DNA from: a virus
Lineage: Duplodnaviria; Caudoviricetes
Virus record (IMG/VR): IMGVR_UViG_3300030372_001683
Coordinates: 1-35,979 of that record
Strand: one strand, 5' to 3'
DNA: 35,979 nt
Under the pieces are notes generated by a model. The model had not been told where the DNA came from and did not search any database. It was given only the letters and a program-made list of their open reading frames with translations. Numbering within the stretch: position 1 is the first letter of the stretch; each line of letters begins with the position of its first letter. The position numbers and the translations under genes are program-made. Below are positions 2,853 through 30,333 of this stretch, piece after piece.

Positions 2853-3062
2853 TTAAGTAAGTTTTTCAAAAATTATTCCATTATCATTGATAAAAGGTTT
2901 TTTATGGTCTACTATATTTTTAATTATTTGAGTGGGTATTCCTTTGGGATAAGCTGTGCAGATAATATTAACAGAAGCTCTATTGAAATGTTTACATTGA
3001 TTACATATAGGTGCTTCCATATCTAAAAGATCAATATCTGTAAATTTTTCACCTTCAGCCAT
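2853..3062 (-). CDS. small Cys/His protein, putative immunity partner of the MuF toxin
   Basis: 69 aa with CxxCxH...CTAYPKGIP...H..P...DNGIIFE; start overlaps the MuF-ART stop. Confidence 0.5.
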   Translation of the reverse strand: MAEGEKFTDIDLLDMEAPICNQCKHFNRASVNIICTAYPKGIPTQIIKNIVDHKKPFINDNGIIFEKLT

Positions 3063-4237
3063 TATATTTCCTGTAAAGTAACTTCTAAAACTGTGTGTTC
3101 AAATTTATACCCATCACTCATTTTTTCAATTCTTTTAACTTCTTTAGCTTTAACTATTTTAAATTGAGTGTCTGGAGCAAATAGTATTTCATCTTCACGA
3201 ATACCAGTTTTACTTTTAATGTTATTTAATCCGTTTAAAACTGTTCCCGTTTTGCTTTTAACGGTAAAATCTATATTCAAACTACCGTATCCACCGTAAT
3301 TCAAATTAGCATTATTACTGGTGCTCCAAAATGTTTTATTAGAGAACATCCCTCCCTGGTTGTCTTTAAACCAATCTAATATACCCCTGGCTTTTTTTAA
3401 ACCAGTTGTGCCGTACTCACTAAATCCTACGTGCCTATAAACTGTTCCTTTGTAATCAGGAGAAATATCGCAGAATTTTTTTAAATCTTCTATTAATTCT
3501 TTTCCTTCTGTTAGCTTAGCTTTGATTGTGTTTCTTTTTACGTTCATTTTTCCAGCTGTGGTTTTTTCGTAATTCCCTCTTAATATAGGGTTTACTAATT
3601 TATGCTCACCTAAAACGTATTTGGCTGCAGACATTTTTGTTTTGTTGTCTAAAGATTTGTAAAATTTTTCCATCTCAACAGAAGCGTTTTGATAACCCCT
3701 CAAAATTATGTTATTTCTTTTAGGTTTAGGAGCGGTTGCAGGTTCTTCAGTAGTTTTTTTCCTCAATATAGGTTCTTTGGGTTTTTCATCTTTATAATCT
3801 TTAGGGACTATTTGACACCTGCAATTAGATTGACATATAGAGAACCCTGATTTTGGCAACCCTAATGCAGCTATAAAATCAAAAGTTCCTTCCTCTCCAT
3901 GCCTTTCTTCACAATCTATACAAACACTTTTATCTCCTACGCTAACCCACCTAAATTCTTTAACACCTGCTTTTATCCATTTATTTTTCGCTGCTTCATT
4001 TGATGCGTAACCTATTCCATTTTTTACAGTAGATTTTATTGTATTTCTATACCCTCCGAATATTCTTCCGCCTACAGGTTCAGACCTCCATAAATCTTCT
4101 AGTAATTTATCTTTAATATTAGAGTCAGACATTCCAGATGCTTTCATATTATTTATTAAATCAGATAAATCCATAGTAGTTTTAGTGGCGGCACTACTGA
4201 TTTCATTTGATATATAAACTTCTAAAGGACTAGGCAT
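3062..4237 (-). CDS. MuF/SPP1 gp7-like minor head protein with C-terminal ADP-ribosyltransferase domain
   Basis: MuF motif W...D..VCIDC...HG...P......CQSNCRC, a Pro/Lys/Glu linker, then R-S-E ART motifs: VYRHV, FWSTS, REDEILF. Confidence 0.8.
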   Translation of the reverse strand: MPSPLEVYISNEISSAATKTTMDLSDLINNMKASGMSDSNIKDKLLEDLWRSEPVGGRIFGGYRNTIKSTVKNGIGYASNEAAKNKWIKAGVKEFRWVSVGDKSVCIDCEERHGEEGTFDFIAALGLPKSGFSICQSNCRCQIVPKDYKDEKPKEPILRKKTTEEPATAPKPKRNNIILRGYQNASVEMEKFYKSLDNKTKMSAAKYVLGEHKLVNPILRGNYEKTTAGKMNVKRNTIKAKLTEGKELIEDLKKFCDISPDYKGTVYRHVGFSEYGTTGLKKARGILDWFKDNQGGMFSNKTFWSTSNNANLNYGGYGSLNIDFTVKSKTGTVLNGLNNIKSKTGIREDEILFAPDTQFKIVKAKEVKRIEKMSDGYKFEHTVLEVTLQEI

Positions 4238-6278: not shown

Positions 6279-7481
6279 TTACCATCCTTTACTTATACCT
6301 ATTCTTTTAAGAATTGGAAATTTATAACTAATTGCATAAGAACAAGCATCGAGAGCATGTGTTAATTCCATGTCGGTTTTATCCAAGCCCCCCCTTTTAT
6401 CTCTTTGGCACTGTTCTAAATCTTTTATTAAATGAACGCAAGAAGGGTCTACAGACATCCCTACGTTTCCTTCTGCGTCTAACAATTTTCTATTTAAAGC
6501 GTTTAATCTGTCTATATGGCTAGGGTGTGATTTTTTTGCTCGTATGAGAAATCCGTGGTCTCTCAATATCTGATGATCTGAACGTCTTGAGGTAGTGGAT
6601 CGAGCAGAACCAGCTGGATCAGGATAACACTCAATACTTGGAGCAATCGCCTTCATTTTGATTGAAAGCTCTTCTGTGTTGCTATTTTTTAGTCTTAGTT
6701 CATCAAAATAATGTATTGTGCTATCACTGTATTGACAAGCTAAAACCGCTGTCATATAATCAACATTAAAATCAACACCCCACCACAAAGTTTTAGATAA
6801 TTCATTCGCTTGTTTTATGTGTATCTTTCTATCAAAATTGTAAGCAGCTCTATTACCAGTTGTTTCAAATGATGCTTCAAACTCCTGCCTAAATAAAACA
6901 GGATCCATCGTTCTCTTTGCCCTTTCTACTTCATCTGCTGGTACAAAACCGCCTTCAAGAGTTGTAAATTTCCAAGATTCCCAATCTTTTTCTGATTGCC
7001 CCCTACTATATAAATCATACATTACGTCATAACCGCTCGGTGTTCCTATAAATAATACACTTCCTTGCGTTGTGGCTAACATAGGGTAAACAATTTCTTC
7101 CCAAACATGAGGTTTTATATAAGCCATCTCATCCATTACGCACTTTGTTAATTCAACACCCCTTAGGTTATGTTCATTATCTGCTCCCTTAACTGCTAAC
7201 TCTGCTCCATTATCAAACATAACAGACATCTCACTTTCGTTTAGCTTAGCACCAACAAACCCTTGGAACATTTGCCGAAGTACAGGAAACACTATCATCT
7301 TTCCTTGCCTGTAAGTCGGTGTAATGAACCATCTCCTCTCTCCCTGCTGAAATGGGTCTTTCAATAAATACATAAGTGATAACACAGTCTTGCCCCACCT
7401 CCGACCTGCTACAATGACCTTGAACCTTGATTGGTGTTGTAAGATTTCGTTTCTTATTTTGTTTACTTTCCATTTAATCAT
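6279..7481 (-). CDS. terL: terminase large subunit
   Basis: Walker A AGRRWGKT, LRG, Walker B VMDE, GTP motif C, FRQEFEASF, nuclease GVDFN and HALDACSY. Confidence 0.93.
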   Translation of the reverse strand: MIKWKVNKIRNEILQHQSRFKVIVAGRRWGKTVLSLMYLLKDPFQQGERRWFITPTYRQGKMIVFPVLRQMFQGFVGAKLNESEMSVMFDNGAELAVKGADNEHNLRGVELTKCVMDEMAYIKPHVWEEIVYPMLATTQGSVLFIGTPSGYDVMYDLYSRGQSEKDWESWKFTTLEGGFVPADEVERAKRTMDPVLFRQEFEASFETTGNRAAYNFDRKIHIKQANELSKTLWWGVDFNVDYMTAVLACQYSDSTIHYFDELRLKNSNTEELSIKMKAIAPSIECYPDPAGSARSTTSRRSDHQILRDHGFLIRAKKSHPSHIDRLNALNRKLLDAEGNVGMSVDPSCVHLIKDLEQCQRDKRGGLDKTDMELTHALDACSYAISYKFPILKRIGISKGW

Positions 7482-8274
7482 ATAAATTTAATTGGTTCTC
7501 AGTAATGCTAACAGGCGGTTCAGCAATCATGTCGCTTTTATCATTTAAATTAATAGTTAGTTCTGAATCGTGCTTTGTAAATAACAAATAAGCACTCGCG
7601 TGGAAATATTCAATATGAGTTAAATTCCACTGCGGATATAATTTTTGATAGTATTTCTTAAGAGCCTTAAAAAAACCTTTCTTGCTATGCCCTTCAATTA
7701 TGACTCCCATTAACCGCTCATAGTTTTCGTAAGACTTCCTGCCATATTTTAAATGAAATATCGAACATTCAGTAATAACGACAAATTTTTTAGCATTATT
7801 AAACATGCCGTCAAGGAAAGACTTATAATCTGATTCTGTTCTAGCTATGGTTAAATTATTAAAATCACTTAGGATTAAATCATACTTATTTTTAAAATTA
7901 TATTTACTTGAATCTACTTTAGTTATGTTATCAGGTTTAAAGTTATTTACCAATAAGTTATAACATTCTTTATCTAAGTCATTTAAAAATGTTTGTTCTT
8001 CCGTGACTTGAAATATTTTCCCAGTGCAACCCAAGCCGCCCAACATGTCCATAAATGTTTTATATTGACCTTTTATTTTATTTTGTATATTGTAAAAGCA
8101 ATGTAACCTCATAGAAAACTCACCATAAAAAAAAGAATAGCTATTTCTATTTTTGTATAAAAATTCATCTATATAACTAACAAGGTTTCCCCATGTCAAT
8201 TTATTAACAGACTTATCAGTAAAGAACTTTATATTACCTTTGTTCTTTTTTAAGGTTATATTAAATTCATTCAT
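7474..8274 (-). CDS. divergent SAM-dependent methyltransferase-like protein
   Basis: FMDMLGGLG (motif I-like), FLNDLD (motif II-like), YDLILSDFNN at the motif IV position without DPPY or PC. Confidence 0.5.
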   Translation of the reverse strand: MNEFNITLKKNKGNIKFFTDKSVNKLTWGNLVSYIDEFLYKNRNSYSFFYGEFSMRLHCFYNIQNKIKGQYKTFMDMLGGLGCTGKIFQVTEEQTFLNDLDKECYNLLVNNFKPDNITKVDSSKYNFKNKYDLILSDFNNLTIARTESDYKSFLDGMFNNAKKFVVITECSIFHLKYGRKSYENYERLMGVIIEGHSKKGFFKALKKYYQKLYPQWNLTHIEYFHASAYLLFTKHDSELTINLNDKSDMIAEPPVSITENQLNLYD

Positions 8275-8590: not shown

Positions 8591-8765
8591 CTATTTCTAC
8601 TAATCCCATAGAGATAGGTTTATTTAACATATCCATTAAATCTTTAACCTTATCATTATCTATCTCAAACACGTCAAACTCTATTCTCCAAGAATGAGTT
8701 AGTTTAAGATTTTTTATTCCAACTAGCTCTACGTTTAATGCAGTTGTTTTACTTTCTTTTGCCAC
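8583..8765 (-). CDS. hypothetical protein
   Basis: 60 aa, GTG start, overlaps both neighbours in the packaging operon. Confidence 0.55.
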   Translation of the reverse strand: MAKESKTTALNVELVGIKNLKLTHSWRIEFDVFEIDNDKVKDLMDMLNKPISMGLVEIDE

Positions 8766-8853
8766 GTTTTTTCATGGACTTCTTTTTTGCAGCAGACTTC
8801 TTTTTCTTTGGTCTGCCTCTTTTACTTCCGTATGTTCCTTTACCTGAAGGCAT
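8749..8853 (-). CDS. 34-aa highly basic peptide with AT-hook-like RGRP
   Basis: Hand translation MPSGKGTYGSKRGRPKKKKSAAKKKSMKKRGKRK; AAAGGG upstream; first ORF of the late operon. Confidence 0.7.
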   Translation of the reverse strand: MPSGKGTYGSKRGRPKKKKSAAKKKSMKKRGKRK

Positions 8854-10317: not shown

Positions 10318-10890
10318 TTAAAATAGTGTTGTTTGAGCCAAATTTGTCATGCCTTCATTACTGCCCGACATAATAAACTCTGCTATTTCATTTGCTTCTT
10401 GCTCTGTGTTATTCAATTTCAAAAAATGATTATAATTATTAACTATGTTATTGACCGCTGTTTTTCTACTATTGAGCCACTTTTCATTTTGCTCATCTTT
10501 TCTTTTGATGTGTCTTTGTTCTTTAACTTCTTCATCACATTTAATAACAACTATCCTAAAGTCAACATCATTTTTTATAATTTCAAATAATGAAGATTTA
10601 AATAACCTATCACCTTCAAATATAATATGCTCAAGACTGTTTCTAGTGGCTTCTAATTTAATGTATTGAATCACTTCTGGCTGCACCGCCATGCTCAATT
10701 TATCAGTTCCTGGGAATATATCTTGCGAATCTCCGTAAATACCCAACACGCTTATCTTATCATTTTTAATCCCCCTTACTAATTTACCCCACATAAATGT
10801 ATCTGATAAATTATTTTCACTAATTATTTTTTTTACTATATAAGACTTTCCAGTCGCTGGTTCGCCTCCTATTGCAGTTACTTTAAGCAT
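10318..10890 (-). CDS. P-loop nucleotide kinase, putative 5-hydroxymethyl-pyrimidine DNA kinase
   Basis: GGEPATGKS Walker A, GTDKLSMAVQP and IIFEGDRL; resembles P-loop kinases of phage thymine hypermodification clusters. Confidence 0.75.
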   Translation of the reverse strand: MLKVTAIGGEPATGKSYIVKKIISENNLSDTFMWGKLVRGIKNDKISVLGIYGDSQDIFPGTDKLSMAVQPEVIQYIKLEATRNSLEHIIFEGDRLFKSSLFEIIKNDVDFRIVVIKCDEEVKEQRHIKRKDEQNEKWLNSRKTAVNNIVNNYNHFLKLNNTEQEANEIAEFIMSGSNEGMTNLAQTTLF

Positions 10891-11146
10891 TTTCTGACTC
10901 CAATTCTCTTTTTATCATTTCAGTTAAAATAGTGTAATTGTCATTAGGTCTGTAAACCACTTCAACTAATTCAGGTTCTCTATCTCTATAATCATTCATC
11001 CTGCCTTTTATATCTTCAATAAGTTCTTTAACAGTGTTTCCGACCGCACTTGTATAACCGAAACCATTTTCTGTTTCATATTTTATTTCAGCATGAAATT
11101 CAAAATCATGGTTCACACTGCTCATTGGTTCATTTTTATTTCCCAT
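10883..11146 (-). CDS. hypothetical protein
   Basis: 87 aa acidic ORF with GAGGAG RBS, overlapping the kinase start. Confidence 0.55.
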   Translation of the reverse strand: MGNKNEPMSSVNHDFEFHAEIKYETENGFGYTSAVGNTVKELIEDIKGRMNDYRDREPELVEVVYRPNDNYTILTEMIKRELESENA

Positions 11147-11289
11147 AATATCTCCTCTTTTATTGAATTTATTTGTATTAAAGCCTTTATTATTTCTCTA
11201 TATGTCATCTCATCTCCACCAGCTTTTAAACATAAATCGCTGAATTCTTCATACGAACAAATGGTTATCATATTTTCTTCTTCAGTCAT
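11122..11289 (-). CDS. 55-aa hypothetical protein
   Basis: Hand translation MTEEENMITICSYEEFSDLCLKAGGDEMTYREIIKAL...; ATGA overlap with upstream ORF. Confidence 0.45.
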   Translation of the reverse strand: MTEEENMITICSYEEFSDLCLKAGGDEMTYREIIKALIQINSIKEEILWEIKMNQ

Positions 11290-11432
11290 TTTTTTCTAGG
11301 GTATTTTTCGTTACAATCTATACAAATCCATATTGAACCAGCTCCCTCTCCATCTTGTCTTGACACTATCGTTACTTCATCATCACAAAGTTCACACGTA
11401 AACCTACCCCCTTTTTTTCTTTTATATAGCAT
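11286..11432 (-). CDS. 48-aa zinc-ribbon protein
   Basis: Hand translation MLYKRKKGGRFTCELCDDEVTIVSRQDGEGAGSIWICIDCNEKYPRKK (two CxxC); coupled to the transferase stop. Confidence 0.55.
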   Translation of the reverse strand: MLYKRKKGGRFTCELCDDEVTIVSRQDGEGAGSIWICIDCNEKYPRKK

Positions 11433-12592
11433 TAAAAAACCTCTATTTGTTTATTCATTTCACACTTATATTTATAAAGATTTTTAAAACAATTCCAACT
11501 ATAATCCATCATCACAACTTGCCCAGTTTCTCTAAACCAATTTTGTTTTAATGGCTTCAAACCCACGTCCCAATGGTTATCTTCTAACCTGAGTTCTTTA
11601 GGCAAATACCTGTTTCTTATAGACCAAAATATTTCAAACTCTTTTCCCCATTGCTTTTCAGCGTGTCTTATTCTATCAACAAACATATCATTATACACAT
11701 TAGGGTATCTTCTATTTTTTCTAAACCACGATTTATAAGTGCACAACGTGGATTCTAAAGTGAAATAATTAACGTCATCAATAAATGGTCTATTTTCCCA
11801 CCTGACTCGAAACCCTCTTAACAAATCAGCTGAAAATTCTTTTAAATATTCGATTAGTTCTGGAGTGTGCATTTTAGTATGGTAACTAGGGTTACTTTTA
11901 TGCATATCCCAATCATCTCTACCAAGGACTTTACACAACCCATTTCTATGGCTTTGGCTCCCACTAATATCTTCTAAAAATAGACTATTACACCTTATGG
12001 GCAATCCCAATATTTTTAAATATTCAAGGTAACTAAATGTACTTAACCTGCCAAACATAAAAAACCTTTCCATAACTTCACCCCAAAGAGTCACGAAATT
12101 TTCATCTATTAAACCAGATGTGCAATCATTAAAATAATCAGATTGGTTTTTACCTACAATTTCTTTATAATTTTTAACCATTTTAACAAGGTGTCCTTTT
12201 TGGTATCTCCTGTCTGTGTCATAACCCAACTTTCGCCAATTTACTGCGTGCCATTTTTCCAACTTATCAATTAAATTATTTTCATCAAAATTAGGAAAAT
12301 GTTTATATATTATATAACTGGTGCAAAGGTTTTGAGTAACTCCGTTTAAATAAGTTAGCCAGAGTTTTTGTTCTTTATCCATTTCAAGTTCATCAAATAA
12401 AAAAGGGAACAAATAATAAACACAACCAGGGTGGCTACTAAATTCTAAATGGAATTCATAAAACCTCGTAAACACTTCTTTCCTGTATTGCGGTAACCTA
12501 AAATCATCCCCTACTTGTAAATTTGAGATTTCATCAAATTCTTTTTTATACAAACCCAATTTGTCTGTTATCACTTTTTTCCTCCCACTCAT
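11432..12592 (-). CDS. amino acid:DNA transferase-like protein (alpha-glutamyl/putrescinyl-thymine pyrophosphorylase clade 2-like)
   Basis: YDTDRRYQKG, FGRLSTFSYLEYL, SHRNGLC, YFTLESTLCTYK and RYPNVY motifs; adjacent to PLP enzyme and near the kinase. Confidence 0.8.
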   Translation of the reverse strand: MSGRKKVITDKLGLYKKEFDEISNLQVGDDFRLPQYRKEVFTRFYEFHLEFSSHPGCVYYLFPFLFDELEMDKEQKLWLTYLNGVTQNLCTSYIIYKHFPNFDENNLIDKLEKWHAVNWRKLGYDTDRRYQKGHLVKMVKNYKEIVGKNQSDYFNDCTSGLIDENFVTLWGEVMERFFMFGRLSTFSYLEYLKILGLPIRCNSLFLEDISGSQSHRNGLCKVLGRDDWDMHKSNPSYHTKMHTPELIEYLKEFSADLLRGFRVRWENRPFIDDVNYFTLESTLCTYKSWFRKNRRYPNVYNDMFVDRIRHAEKQWGKEFEIFWSIRNRYLPKELRLEDNHWDVGLKPLKQNWFRETGQVVMMDYSWNCFKNLYKYKCEMNKQIEVF

Positions 12593-13652
12593 TTTTAATT
12601 ACATTAGGCTCTACTGGAAAATTGCCTAATTCTCTTCTAAAATATTCCATTTCTGTTAAATAAGGCTTTGAACCTACTATCCAAAATAATGTACTAGCTC
12701 TTACTAAATGCGGTAATTTATCTCTTAAATAAGTCATTACTTTACCTTCATAAGTTGGGTGCAATTCAATTCCTTCAAAATCATATTTCATTTGTTGCTG
12801 GTAATCTACGTAACCAGTTGAATGTAAATCATAATAATACAAATTATAAGAACCGCTTTCAATTTCTGGTTTAAAAATATCATTATTAAATTTTTTGTTG
12901 TAATTCAATGTGTTTATTTTACTATTTTCTTTAATCAATTTCAACCTTTCATATATGAACTTTATTTTACTTGGACCAATACCAACTAAGTGCACGTTTA
13001 ATTTTTTCAGAGGTCTGTATTTTGACAAACCATATAAAATAGAAATTGTGCTATTACAACTGCCAGAAGGAACCACTAAATCAGTAACATGTTCAGGTAT
13101 GTTTTGAACTTGATTTCCGCTCAGATTATGGAATTCAATTATTTTATTTATTTTTTCTTCAGGGTCGATTGCTATACCGTAATTAAGTTCATAATAATTT
13201 TTATATTTACCAGCTTTTAATTCTTTTACTTTTCTTTGCAAACAAGGGTTGTAAGCCACTTTAATAAAATAAAAATGGGCATCAAACCAAGTTGCCATTT
13301 TTACCATTTCTTTTTTCATGCAAATGTCAGGTCTTGTAGCTCCTATCACATGCATAGAATCTAACCCGTAATGATAAGCTACGGCAGAACCCATAGGTAA
13401 TTGCGGCGACAAAACACTAGCACCCGATATAACGCCATCTACGCCCCCTCTTTTAACATATTCGTTAGTAAGCCAAATACACTGTCTTAACTTTGCTCCA
13501 TTTATACCTGCGTAACCCAAAGGTGCAAAATAATCTTCTCTTTTTAAATACATATCTCCCCAAAAATGCACTGGTGTCATTTTATATAAATAATCTTCCC
13601 ATTTTACTCTGTTTCTATTTAAACTGCAATCATCAAATATTGTAGACTTCAT
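12546..13652 (-). CDS. PLP-dependent enzyme (fold II, ACC deaminase/D-Cys desulfhydrase-like), putative DNA-amino acid decarboxylase
   Basis: LKREDYFAP...INGAKLRQ (PLP lysine), SPQ, VPSGSCNS, LHPTYEGK, LFWIVG. Confidence 0.8.
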   Translation of the reverse strand: MKSTIFDDCSLNRNRVKWEDYLYKMTPVHFWGDMYLKREDYFAPLGYAGINGAKLRQCIWLTNEYVKRGGVDGVISGASVLSPQLPMGSAVAYHYGLDSMHVIGATRPDICMKKEMVKMATWFDAHFYFIKVAYNPCLQRKVKELKAGKYKNYYELNYGIAIDPEEKINKIIEFHNLSGNQVQNIPEHVTDLVVPSGSCNSTISILYGLSKYRPLKKLNVHLVGIGPSKIKFIYERLKLIKENSKINTLNYNKKFNNDIFKPEIESGSYNLYYYDLHSTGYVDYQQQMKYDFEGIELHPTYEGKVMTYLRDKLPHLVRASTLFWIVGSKPYLTEMEYFRRELGNFPVEPNVIKNEWEEKSDNRQIGFV

Positions 13653-14557
13653 TAGAATTTACCTATAAATTTTTGAGCAACTACTCTTTGGTTTTTTTGT
13701 ATTCTTTTCAGTTCCTGTTCAGGATTTAAACATTTCCACATATTTTCTCTATAATACATCACGAAAGAAAGCCTCACCGCTTCATCTGATTTTTTTATTA
13801 TTTCAGTATTTCCATGAACTTGGTGCACATCAACTAATAATAAATCATTAGTATTTAAATTAATAGCTATTTTATACCTAGGTAAAACAAATAAAACAGG
13901 CTCCATATCTTTTATATATGCTACTAAATTTCCAAACCCTTTAGCGTAATCACCTCTGTCAGTGTGGTAAGCTGTTCTATAATCTTTATTTACAGTCACA
14001 GTTGTGAAAGCAGTGTTCCCTATTCTGTAATTCGGATCTGTTGCCATTATCATTTCTTTTTGTTTTTTATGTCTATAAGGAACGTATTTTTTAAAACCTT
14101 CATCTACGACTTTCATTAATTCCATTCCCTGTTTAAAGTTTTTAGGATTTTGCACGTTGTATGCTGTCCTCCTACAGAAATCATAATGAGCTCCCCTGTC
14201 GAAATAACCAATAATACCGCTCAAATCTTGAACTTGCTCATCCGTCCCAGGTATGTAAACTTGAGTAGTTTTTGATATTGTACCATCTTTGAGAACCCTG
14301 TTCCTACGTTCACCGCCACTAGAAGCACCCCTGTTATTTGTGGGCTGAGCAGCGTTTTTTAAAGAGTGGTAAGCATTTTCTAATATTTTAGGTTCTATAT
14401 AATTTTTTTTAAACACAAAAAGAGGTTGCCCAGTTTTTGTGTACGCTTCGCAATCGTAATCTATAACCTCATCATAATCACTTCTTTTTGAAAAAGTGTT
14501 TATTAAATTATCGGTCTCTGATTCAGTCAAATGGTAATCAGCTATTAATTTTTTCAT
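13652..14557 (-). CDS. TET/JBP-family 2OG-Fe(II) dioxygenase (5-methylpyrimidine oxygenase)
   Basis: FTTVTVNKDYRTAYHTDRGD (HxD), VHGNTEI (distal His), RLSFVMYYRENM (2OG-binding Arg); also NRGASSG and SGIIGYFDR. Confidence 0.88.
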   Translation of the reverse strand: MKKLIADYHLTESETDNLINTFSKRSDYDEVIDYDCEAYTKTGQPLFVFKKNYIEPKILENAYHSLKNAAQPTNNRGASSGGERRNRVLKDGTISKTTQVYIPGTDEQVQDLSGIIGYFDRGAHYDFCRRTAYNVQNPKNFKQGMELMKVVDEGFKKYVPYRHKKQKEMIMATDPNYRIGNTAFTTVTVNKDYRTAYHTDRGDYAKGFGNLVAYIKDMEPVLFVLPRYKIAINLNTNDLLLVDVHQVHGNTEIIKKSDEAVRLSFVMYYRENMWKCLNPEQELKRIQKNQRVVAQKFIGKF

Positions 14558-14756
14558 ATTTTTCCTTTACTATCTGCTTAAGTAAATCAGCATAGACATC
14601 TTGTTTTTCATGTTCACATAACTCTTCTAACATTTTTATCATATTAGCTTTATCACCCTTTTCAAAAGCTATTTGTAAATATTCTATGTCAGTTTCTTTT
14701 ATTTCCCCTTCTTTTTCAGCAGGAGCCATGTCAAATAAAAACAAATCTTCTTCCAT
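14538..14756 (-). CDS. small acidic protein coupled to the dioxygenase
   Basis: 72 aa with GGGAG RBS; overlaps the dioxygenase start by 20 nt. Confidence 0.6.
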   Translation of the reverse strand: MEEDLFLFDMAPAEKEGEIKETDIEYLQIAFEKGDKANMIKMLEELCEHEKQDVYADLLKQIVKEKYEKINS

Positions 14757-28271: not shown

Positions 28272-29257
28272 TATCTTCTACTCATGTGCATCCTTTTAAT
28301 TGGAGTCATTCTTTGGTCTAAAACTCCACTAACTTCTAATTCCCATTCATCATTAGTTGTATAAACCCCAGCACTAAAACGAACATACATATCGTGACCA
28401 ATGTCTTGCCAATAACAATCTATAACATCTTCACTAATTTTAGACTGCAATTTTAAACCACTTTCATTTCTTACATAAGTGCTATATTTTACGCTGGTGT
28501 TTGAACTTCCTTCAGTGATTGTGCCTCCGTTACTGATAATAATTTTTATTTTATCCCAATTTGTGCTTGGCGTTCCTTTAATATCTACAATTCCACCTGT
28601 GGTGTTCGTGTTCACAGCAACTGTTCTTAGTATACCTCTTTTTTTATACTCACTTTCACTACTGTAAAGATGAACTTGACCTGTCCTTAGCATGTCTAAC
28701 CAACCAGTTCCCTGGTCATTTATAGCTTGACTTTTTATTTGGTCAGCTTTTTCTAAATCATAAGGTCTTACTAAAGATTCAACCGCCATTACAGCAGTAC
28801 TTCTTACAATTATTTCTGGGTAATCATTTCCCACCGCGTCAGATGTTCCTACTCCTTTGTTTGGATAAACGGGGAAAGGTAAATAACTTCTTATAAAATC
28901 ACTAGCTCTTTTAACCGCCTCTGTTTTTAATGTATCCCAATCCCTACTAGCCTCAAACACTGTACTATTCATTGCAGAGACTGATAAGCCGCCCATAAAA
29001 AATTGTAATCTATCTGAACCACTATCATATTCAAACTCGTTGTTGGCGTTAGGGGTGTCTGTTACGCTAGTTTGCTCTTCTCCGTCTTTGTATAATTGTG
29101 AAACATATCCTGAATTATGTAAGTAATAAAGGTTGGAAGTTCCCGAAGCCACCCAATTACTAGGTAAAACACTTTTCCCGTCATATTGGGCTAAATGTGG
29201 CTCTACAAATAACAGGTCTGTAGTTGTATTGCAATAGCTTGTTTCATACGTACTCAT
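28271..29257 (-). CDS. putative head-tail adaptor / neck protein
   Basis: 328 aa; SYCNTTTDL, AVKRASDFIRSYL, PEIIV and WLDMLRTG recall Mu gp36-like adaptors with extra domains. Confidence 0.5.
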   Translation of the reverse strand: MSTYETSYCNTTTDLLFVEPHLAQYDGKSVLPSNWVASGTSNLYYLHNSGYVSQLYKDGEEQTSVTDTPNANNEFEYDSGSDRLQFFMGGLSVSAMNSTVFEASRDWDTLKTEAVKRASDFIRSYLPFPVYPNKGVGTSDAVGNDYPEIIVRSTAVMAVESLVRPYDLEKADQIKSQAINDQGTGWLDMLRTGQVHLYSSESEYKKRGILRTVAVNTNTTGGIVDIKGTPSTNWDKIKIIISNGGTITEGSSNTSVKYSTYVRNESGLKLQSKISEDVIDCYWQDIGHDMYVRFSAGVYTTNDEWELEVSGVLDQRMTPIKRMHMSRR

Positions 29258-30333
29258 GATTTGCTTTTCCTTTTAAATTTTAAATAATCTGCAGCTTCAT
29301 ATGGATTAAAAAATAGAGTAATTAATCTATTATCATCATCATCGTATTTTGGATTAATAATTGTAACTGGAGCATTAAATATGTTTTTATCATCTAAGCC
29401 AAGTTTATTAGCGTATTCATCCATGTTTTTAAATGATGCTACTTGAATTGCGTGACTGATTAATCCAGAAGCTGGATCTTTTAATACTTGATAACCGCTA
29501 ACATGTGTATGACCTGCAGTTAGTATATGGTCTCTCCAACCAGTTTGCACTGCTCTGCTAATTGCGTGGGCAGTATTCCACATAGAGTTGCCTTTAAATT
29601 GATGCCTGGCATTTACCCGAACACACTTACCATTTGGAAATCTTAAATTCATTCTAGCACCATGTTGTTTATATATAGCTTTTTTATCGCGCATAATAAA
29701 ATCTAAGGGATCTCCATCGCCTGACCAAACATCATGGTTTCCTGCTATTAAATACAACCAATCAACGCTATTTAAAAAATGCTCTGAAATCATCCATGAT
29801 TCTTTAGCCGTTGTTGATTGTTGACCGTGTAAAGCCTTCAATCTTCCTACCCAATTATTTTGAACATCTCCTAAATTACCAGCAAACATTCCTTCCGTTT
29901 CACGAATCAAATTACACAAAGAATATATTTCAGCTAAATTAGTTCCATCATCATCAACGTGGGGATCCCCAAAATGACAAATACCAACAATACCCCTTGT
30001 ATGAATATTAACATCAATTAATTGCCTTTGTTTGTAGGCATCATATTTTTGAATATATCTTTTTTTCCTATATTCAATAATATCATCAATGTTCATTTCC
30101 TCTATTGGCAGGTCTTGAACTGAAAACTCGTTTTTTTCTATGATATACGGATTCAATGTTTTATGACCGCAACTTTTTTCTGAACACATCCATCGCTGAC
30201 GCTTCCTATTATTTTTCCAATACTGCCAACCGTCTTTCCTAATGTTTTCTGTGTTACATTTTGGGCAACCAACAAAATTCCCTTCAGAATCTTGCGCCCT
30301 TTTTTTAGTGACTCCATTAGGTTGTTTTGGCAT
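29254..30333 (-). CDS. calcineurin-like metallophosphoesterase with N-terminal zinc ribbon
   Basis: GDPH, LGD, AGNHD, RH and AGHTH motifs; CPKC...C...C N-terminal ribbon. Confidence 0.85.
   Translation of the reverse strand: MPKQPNGVTKKRAQDSEGNFVGCPKCNTENIRKDGWQYWKNNRKRQRWMCSEKSCGHKTLNPYIIEKNEFSVQDLPIEEMNIDDIIEYRKKRYIQKYDAYKQRQLIDVNIHTRGIVGICHFGDPHVDDDGTNLAEIYSLCNLIRETEGMFAGNLGDVQNNWVGRLKALHGQQSTTAKESWMISEHFLNSVDWLYLIAGNHDVWSGDGDPLDFIMRDKKAIYKQHGARMNLRFPNGKCVRVNARHQFKGNSMWNTAHAISRAVQTGWRDHILTAGHTHVSGYQVLKDPASGLISHAIQVASFKNMDEYANKLGLDDKNIFNAPVTIINPKYDDDDNRLITLFFNPYEAADYLKFKRKSKS

Follow-up and report, generated by a model that had tools for sequence, protein, structure and literature searches.

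The window analysed here is a single contig of 35,979 bases, the whole assembly of a small tailed phage (IMG/VR record IMGVR_UViG_3300030372_001683), and positions 10318 to 14756 of its minus strand hold a run of genes that would modify thymine in DNA after replication. The best explanation of this run as a whole, to which we give a probability of about 0.55, is a five-gene unit that modifies a subset of the thymines after host-driven replication and is activated by a small protein. A dimer of a 72-residue ribbon-helix-helix protein would bind the C-terminal extension of a TET/JBP dioxygenase, likely activating it, and the dioxygenase would oxidise T in the DNA to 5-hydroxymethyluracil (5-hmU). 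A kinase would then place one phosphate onto 5-hmU, giving 5-phosphomethyl-U, and an amino acid:DNA transferase would swap the phosphate for an amino acid, most likely serine via its side-chain oxygen, giving O-seryl-T. A pyridoxal phosphate (PLP)-dependent enzyme would remove CO2 and leave a 5-(2-aminoethoxy)methyl-uracil-type base, like that of 5-(2-aminoethoxy)methyldeoxyuridine (5-NeOmdU). We regard the pathway in outline as highly probable; that the small protein binds and activates the dioxygenase, and which amino acid is used, are predictions. What is new here is the miniature ParB-derived partner; the four-enzyme design itself has already been published.

Enzymes of the gene run

The dioxygenase gene (13652..14557, minus strand; 301 aa) matched Pfam Tet_JBP (PF12851) with an E value of 3.5e-19 and 69.1 bits against a cut-off of 34.9, which bears out the initial annotation of this DNA. 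The iron ligands of its HxD...H motif (H198, D200 and H248) and the arginine for 2-oxoglutarate (R262) were identical in all 22 homologues. O'Toole (2026, PMC13229309) showed that T in DNA is oxidised by phage enzymes of clades C1 and C2 and linked ParB-like activators, P-loop kinases and transferases to clade C1. We connected the window enzyme to the enzymes of that paper through a related locus, L059, whose dioxygenase shares 35% identity with it and is, by eye, 5mYOX179. Beyond its last conserved Cys the window enzyme has a C-terminal extension of 25 residues; such an extension marks the ParB-dependent subclass and was found essential (O'Toole, PMC13229309). Similarity to a C1 member, this extension and the lack of a neighbouring C5 methylase place the enzyme, as far as sequence goes, with the phage T-dioxygenases of clade C1 type, and by analogy it likely oxidises T in DNA to 5-hmU.

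Because the transferase, the PLP enzyme and the kinase are poorly covered by Pfam, we set them against their characterised counterparts from phages ViI and M6. Lee (2022, PMC8989533) established the steps carried out by the kinase, the transferase and the decarboxylase. The PLP-dependent enzyme (12546..13652, minus strand; 368 aa) had no Pfam match, but its alignment with ViI gp226 gave 41.6% identity across 380 columns (E 9e-98), with K54 opposite K92, the Schiff-base lysine of gp226. Weak matches to the D-cysteine desulfhydrase family were seen, and a comparison by sequence with solved structures gave no match. By analogy with gp226, the enzyme likely removes CO2 from the amino acid once this is attached to the base. 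The amino acid:DNA transferase (11432..12592, minus strand; 386 aa) has as its closest characterised relative by sequence ViI gp247 (29.8% identity, E 6e-26). It matched Pfam aGPT-Pplase3 only below the cut-off (E 3.5e-4) and had no ADDT match in Pfam; Bane2 gp3, which is 39% identical to it, passes the ADDT cut-off. E280 and C284 occupy the catalytic position, C284 being invariant and E280 kept, and mutation at this Glu/Cys position abolished activity in gp247 and M6 gp51 (Lee, PMC8989533). A profile of 35 transferase homologues found gp247 at 5e-56 and did not match M6 gp51. Both enzymes are what the initial annotation had taken them for.

The kinase (10318..10890, minus strand; 190 aa) is a P-loop protein resembling the 5-hmU DNA kinases and probably one of them. 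It shares motifs with M6 gp54, and its match to Pfam Ploopntkinase3 stayed below the cut-off (E 0.003). A relative of it in L035 passes that cut-off with an E value of 3.6e-10. Ten invariant columns are common to the kinase, M6 gp54 and ViI gp243, including G9, G14, K15, G50, Y52, D63, E92 and G93. When a profile of 59 window-type kinases was used, M6 gp54 ranked first and ViI gp243 second of 263 control segments, with weak E values of 0.002 and 0.02.

These genes had been described as one co-oriented, overlapping run of four. Strand, place and intact reading frames agree with this description, but three small overlapping open reading frames (ORFs; 10883..11432, minus strand) stand between the transferase and the kinase. 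They fill the 541 bp between the two genes, with overlapping starts and stops, and lie at 11286-11432 (48 aa, two CxxC motifs), 11122-11289 (55 aa) and 10883-11146 (87 aa). The two small linking ORFs that were scanned had no family match, and a homologue of the 87-aa ORF is found in L013 and L014, there outside the cassette. Two genes had been overlooked, namely that of the 72-aa protein (14538-14756), which lies inside the run, and a methyltransferase-fold gene (7474-8274); both are treated below.

The window encodes no route by which the modified base could be made at the nucleotide level. None of its 55 minus-strand ORFs matched a thymidylate synthase, dCMP deaminase, polymerase, C5 methylase or glycosyltransferase. 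In a tblastn search of the window, the M6 hydroxymethylase, polymerase, dCMP deaminase and radical S-adenosylmethionine (SAM) enzyme and the ViI polymerase had no match, and the gp226 control was found; the M6 gp54 kinase control was also unmatched, so that this pairwise search misses remote relatives. For M6 gp53, a radical SAM isomerase, there was neither a tblastn match nor a family match in the window. The post-replicative logic proposed earlier is thus upheld: the window has no genes for a pre-replicative route, its dioxygenase falls among the phage T-dioxygenases, and the later enzymes (kinase, transferase, decarboxylase) are like those of ViI. Two remarks on known systems in the initial annotation need correction. 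It had 5-hmU pyrophosphorylated on DNA, and the characterised kinases add a single phosphate (Lee, PMC8989533); it also had phage TET homologues usually paired with a C5 methylase, and in O'Toole's survey such pairs make up 6% (PMC13229309).

Because no radical SAM isomerase was found, a PLP decarboxylase would need an amino acid whose alpha-amine is free, as ViI achieves by attaching serine via its hydroxyl (Lee, PMC8989533). We infer that the transferase uses serine or another amino acid with a side-chain nucleophile. The lack of an isomerase, together with a transferase and a PLP enzyme nearer to those of ViI than to those of M6, makes a 5-NeOmdU-type base the best guess; that the product is exactly 5-NeOmdU has, in our view, a little less than an even chance.

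The small partner of the dioxygenase

The gene of the 72-aa protein (14538..14756, minus strand) overlaps the start of the dioxygenase gene by 20 bases, and this overlap is also present in relatives. Judged by its family profile and fold, the protein is the C-terminal ribbon-helix-helix dimerisation domain of a ParB-like activator, without the nucleotide-binding domain. When a profile of 22 such small proteins was compared with ParBs, only the C-terminal 53-55 columns matched, with a probability of 92.4% for six ParBs and of 96.1% for 56 tails; none of 40 column-shuffled controls exceeded 0.74%, and six families of neighbouring genes stayed below 0.3%. No ParB nucleotide-binding domain (PF02195) was found in the 55 ORFs or in 630 six-frame segments of the window, and the same profile found 17 ParBs in related loci. 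The predicted monomer consists of two helices and is strand-free. Its fold search was filled with ribbon-helix-helix proteins (NikR, Arc, PutA), the best with a Z of 5.2, a root-mean-square deviation of 1.7 and 45 aligned residues, which is middling for a small domain; an Atlas search gave a best score of 0.84, which is a lead only. Among 1.84 billion representatives the profile matched 24 proteins, of which 23 are at most 112 aa long, so that a small size is normal for this family and no sign of a damaged gene.

To see how far the small gene extends, we classed the gene upstream of the dioxygenase in 153 loci including the window, a set from which duplicates, methyltransferase loci and the reference loci of ViI and M6 had been removed. 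A dioxygenase was present in 151 of them; upstream of it stood a full ParB in 78, a small gene in 32, a small gene near a contig edge in 5 and none in 21, and in 15 the region was cut. The 'small' genes of L063, L064, L102 and L165 are probably ParBs cut by the contig edge. After sequences more than 90% alike were dropped, 70 remained. All 26 that have a small partner fall into a single clade (FastTree support 0.998), and the cultured phage P12024L is among its members. The gene is kept in all 26 non-redundant members of this clade. The sample is biased, because a single locus served as the seed for the ParB set and only 80 of 531 relatives were kept.

The dioxygenases of large phages (L016, L067-L089) form a further type. 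They are 430-460 aa long, have neither a ParB nor the small partner, and carry an insertion of 110-121 residues and a tail of 65-77 residues, in most cases with a short acidic-aromatic motif at its end. We considered whether these longer, partner-less enzymes contain the small domain as a fusion and rejected this, the probability being below 0.1%.

The dioxygenase and two copies of its small partner were modelled together as a three-chain complex, with our own alignments supplied. The model scored 0.82, and the best of three controls scored 0.02. The score mark is reached by 116 of 157 solved pairs and by 2 of 215 mismatched pairs, a calibration that is only rough for three chains and alignments of our own. 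The model runs agreed in at least 63% of the contacts, and the pLDDT value of the partner (predicted local distance difference test) was at least 78. The best modelled contacts fall on dioxygenase residues 283-298, within the C-terminal extension; on the side of the partner the predicted interface comprises residues 27-33 and 40-57. We therefore predict that a dimer of the small protein binds this extension. In O'Toole's model, reasonable confidence was reached only for ParB C-termini lying near the enzyme (PMC13229309).

Several observations weigh against the reading that a small protein activates a thymine-modifying unit. The ParB-tail homology rests on the family, because the window copy is divergent and matched the ParB-tail profile with an E value of only 0.15, yet as rank 1 of 630 segments. 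Conservation of the dioxygenase at the interface (0.72) hardly differs from that of its other residues (0.71). In the published system, 5mYOX176 showed 0% activity when ParB176 was cut down to its tail by removal of the nucleotide-binding domain, a stable ParB-dioxygenase complex was not detected, and ParB-less clade C1 enzymes were inactive alone for a cause left unexplained (O'Toole, PMC13229309). Phage dioxygenases of this group also oxidise 5-methylcytosine (5mC) about as well as T in vitro (O'Toole, PMC13229309), so that T as the substrate is read from the gene context. With regard to the product, the transferase falls with Bane2 gp3 and apart from gp247 with a support of 0.997, its tie to gp247 lacks tree support (0.13) at an identity of only 30%, the transferase family uses many ligands (PMC13458397), and close transferases occur without a PLP gene within the available DNA of L027 and L034. 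Finally, GATC and other T-containing palindromes are still avoided in the genome, so that any protection by the modification would be partial.

That the small protein is needed for the activity of the dioxygenase has, on balance, even odds. The partner bears on how ParB activates dioxygenases and on why ParB-less C1 members showed no activity. Clade C1 enzymes alone gave 0.5-1% 5-hmU, and up to about 35% with ParB, both of whose domains were required (PMC13229309); co-expression of the four enzyme genes may therefore fail without the fifth, 72-aa gene. For 5mYOX179, 5-hmU came to about 3% when ParB176 was present, and two other ParBs yielded none (O'Toole, PMC13229309). A five-gene route that is free of a polymerase would convert thymines in any DNA to an amine-bearing base, which would be useful for labelling.

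The methyltransferase-fold gene and other readings

Between the terminase genes terS and terL lies a gene for a protein with a class I SAM methyltransferase fold (7474..8274, minus strand). It scored 0.96 to methyltransferase clusters in the Atlas, and its low-confidence model (pLDDT 66) gave weak Foldseek matches, the best to a DNA adenine methylase (E 3e-5) and others to tRNA and peptide methylases. The family is rare, with only five relatives in a protein search and no match among cultured phage records. A homologue occupies the same terS/terL site in L027 and L040 (46%) and in the close relatives L091, L093 and L094. C5 methylases carry a Pro-Cys motif, and DNA amino-methylases carry a double-proline motif. 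Neither motif appears in the alignment of six homologues, and the protein has no PF00145, PHROG or NCBIfam match; the methylase of L009 does match PF00145. As the protein is not a recognisable C5 methylase, the earlier claim that no such enzyme is encoded holds in a narrow sense. A kinship with the M6 hydroxymethylase gp58 (pairwise E 0.02) was rejected, because the fold is that of a SAM methyltransferase. That the protein tailors the modified base is possible and weakly supported.

The reading closest to ours keeps the chemistry and lets the dioxygenase act alone, the 72-aa protein being a ParB vestige or a ribbon-helix-helix repressor of the operon. Its fold resembles the DNA-binding regulators NikR, Arc and PutA, and the failure of the ParB tail alone noted above speaks in the same direction, as does a variable insertion of the dioxygenase that measures 26-40 residues in the small-partner clade vs 47-49 in the sampled ParB-linked set, since this insertion can confer ParB independence (O'Toole, PMC13229309). 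We nevertheless consider this unlikely, because the gene is retained throughout its clade and the complex model places the small protein on the enzyme. In addition, the strand that contacts DNA in ribbon-helix-helix regulators carries Glu25 in every row here and lacks basic residues in 21 of the 22 (the remaining one has a Lys), and ParB tails have Lys or Arg there. Somewhat less probable still is another end product, for which the transferase would use threonine, cysteine or a diamino acid, or the 7474-8274 protein would N-methylate the amine to a choline-like group. The well-supported grouping of the transferase with Bane2 gp3, and the absence from the 7474-8274 protein of both methylase motifs, would suit it. 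So would the distribution of the methyltransferase among the 20 clade loci with both terminase genes visible, in which it occurs in 2 of 5 loci with the transferase type of the window and in 0 of 15 others, rows that are not independent. However, the methyltransferase is missing from L035, where all four enzymes are present, it occurs in L027 with no PLP gene in the available DNA, L092 has a 56% homologue with no cassette genes nearby, and the PLP enzyme is a close homologue of gp226.

It is very improbable that the dioxygenase acts on 5mC, with either a host methylase or the 7474-8274 protein as its source, and that the later enzymes build on 5-hydroxymethylcytosine (5-hmC). The characterised relatives do oxidise 5mC in vitro, the clade relative L009 has a C5 methylase-like gene upstream, and a 5-hmC kinase route was raised by Burke et al. 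(PMC8256090). Yet no C5 methylase was found in the genome, in which GGCC (0) and CCGG (2) are near-absent on both strands, the characterised kinases and transferases act on 5-hmU (PMC8989533), and clade C1 enzymes were inactive on 5mC even with active methylases in a study that also noted their kinase and transferase neighbours (Burke, PMC8256090). We give the least credence to a cassette that is inactive or unused, or to a nucleotide-level hydroxymethylase in sequence missing from the contig. The join of the contig is open, and the tail spike of the relative L094 is about 80 residues longer than that of the window up to the matching point, but all frames are intact and the proteins keep 85-92% identity in L001 and L002. 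Moreover, both ends lie in one tail-spike gene and the gene order is that of L094, which leaves little room for extra genes. A bolder combination, in which a free-standing ParB tail activates the dioxygenases throughout the clade with the CTPase fold dispensable, and N-methylation in this phage leads to an undescribed choline-like thymine, is a long shot when both parts are taken jointly; if it were true, the published inactive ParB-less enzymes lacked only an overlooked small partner. The small-protein-activated five-gene unit remains our preferred reading.

Relatives, genome setting and known systems

In related loci the downstream genes vary. The PLP enzyme, transferase and kinase follow the small partner and the dioxygenase in the window, in L001 and L002 (85-92%) and in L035 (37-62%), and the PLP gene lies upstream instead in L009 and L011. 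The transferase and kinase stand behind the pair in L027, L034 and L040. An amidotransferase-like gene accompanies the transferase and kinase in seven loci (L023, L024, L026, L028, L031, L033, L036), and a TET-associated glycosyltransferase lies downstream in six (L005, L019, L020, L025, L030, L039). The small partner stays tied to the dioxygenase start while the downstream enzymes vary, a pattern that fits a fixed module making 5-hmU and a variable module decorating it.

Other arrangements were also seen among the relatives. In L021 (8921-11048) and L022 the small partner and the dioxygenase precede another transferase, a flavin-dependent enzyme and a kinase, a PaMx11-like set that is here started by a dioxygenase. 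In L037 (6554-7249) and L038 (2302-3072) an FkbM-family methyltransferase directly follows the dioxygenase, with no kinase or glycosyltransferase in view, and O-methylation of 5-hmU is possible. In L014, L029 and L032 the dioxygenase is followed by a kinase only, with no transferase in the available DNA, and 5-phosphomethyl-U may be the end product.

The minus strand of the window carries every assigned gene, including those for the terminase, capsid, tail, endolysin and a RusA-like nuclease. In all, 93.7% of the contig is taken up by genes, the widest gap measures 312 bp, and no plus-strand ORF is longer than 139 aa. A single tail-spike gene runs open off both contig ends, and this, with the L094-like gene order, indicates a circularly permuted, nearly complete genome of a tailed phage. 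The initial annotation had called the genome seemingly complete; contigs from public runs did not close the join between its ends. Near-identical pieces were found in marine or seawater runs of four studies, one of them possibly the source of the contig, and no RNA run was listed as containing the sequence. A scan of prokaryote genomes gave 13 loci, with a single close relative, L171 (62%), that is cut upstream of the gene.

Palindromes of 4 and 6 bases are strongly avoided on both strands (AAGCTT 0, GATC 40 vs 175 expected, in addition to the GGCC and CCGG counts above), pointing to heavy restriction pressure. The avoidance covers T-free and T-containing sites alike, and k-mer counts of the window gave no target motif. 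The modification likely serves as protection from host nucleases and may have a role in packaging.

Some other genes of the window deserve mention. At 3062-4237 (minus strand) a MuF-like minor head protein is fused to an ADP-ribosyltransferase domain (Pfam, above cut-off), and its C-terminal part appears different in the relative L093 (466 aa). An uncalled, very basic ORF of 35 codons at about 8746-8853 (minus strand), upstream of terS, possibly encodes a small DNA-binding protein; its part at 8809-8844 is matched by many unrelated public-run contigs and by L002, L091, L113 and L158. A phosphoesterase-like protein with an N-terminal zinc-binding domain (29254-30333, minus strand; PHROG 'DNA repair exonuclease') is encoded between the endolysin and head-tail genes. 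The PHROG labels 'terminase small subunit' and 'queuine tRNA-ribosyltransferase' on two window genes look like mislabels, as in Bane2.

The initial annotation knew of no biochemical confirmation of the combination. In the literature searched, which was incomplete, the whole dioxygenase-started route was not found reconstituted, and no paper joined ribbon-helix-helix, dioxygenase, phage and 5hmU. The novelty is smaller than supposed, in that the design is published, its first step has been shown and cultured phages carry it. Contigs in which TET_JBP replaces the dUMP hydroxymethylase were reported by Lee (PMC8989533), who drew the same inference; sequences 22-25 of Lee's Fig. 2 show the design, a likeness that we take from text and legend alone. 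The genome note of phage Tonitrus lists a design of ParB, TET/JBP, transferase and kinase (PMC11955845).

Closest in its first step is the ParB-dependent C1 system of O'Toole (5mYOX176/ParB176; PMC13229309), which shares with the window the enzyme group, the C-terminal extension, the lack of a C5 methylase, the kinase and transferase neighbours and a partner gene overlapping the dioxygenase start. The partner in the window, however, is the C-terminal ribbon-helix-helix domain only, whereas the paper requires both ParB domains. Some C1 members without ParB are reported there as inactive, the downstream products are not characterised in the parts cited, and 'PLP' is absent from its 12 supplementary files.

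For the later steps the nearest system is the 5-NeOmdU pathway of ViI (kinases gp67 and gp243, gp247 and gp226), with a homologous kinase, a transferase at 30% and a decarboxylase at 42% identity, catalytic residues kept and no radical SAM isomerase. In ViI, 5-hydroxymethyldeoxyuridine (5-hmdU) is made at the nucleotide level and the 157-kb genome has its own polymerase, whereas in the window, with 36 kb and no polymerase, 5-hmU would form on DNA. The M6-type pathway to 5-(2-aminoethyl)deoxyuridine (5-NedU) differs by its radical SAM isomerase gp53, which was not found in the window.

Among cultured phages, Mycobacteriophage Bane2 (gp1-gp4) and Rhodococcus phage Tonitrus (genes 1-5) carry ParB-like, TET/JBP, transferase and kinase genes by the genome start or the terminase. 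The four Bane2 genes (L170, 1-3462) are annotated as regulator, hypothetical, hypothetical and small terminase; they match ParB-like (weakly), TET/JBP, transferase and 5-hmU kinase proteins. The ParB-like gp1 of Bane2 is longer (265 aa), and no PLP homologue was found in Bane2, no Mycobacterium phage being among the 348 records. In Nonlabens (Persicivirga) phage P12024L (gp25-gp27), a 71-aa gene annotated as hypothetical overlaps a TET/JBP gene of the same clade. There a TET-associated glycosyltransferase comes next, in the place that the kinase and transferase take in the window.

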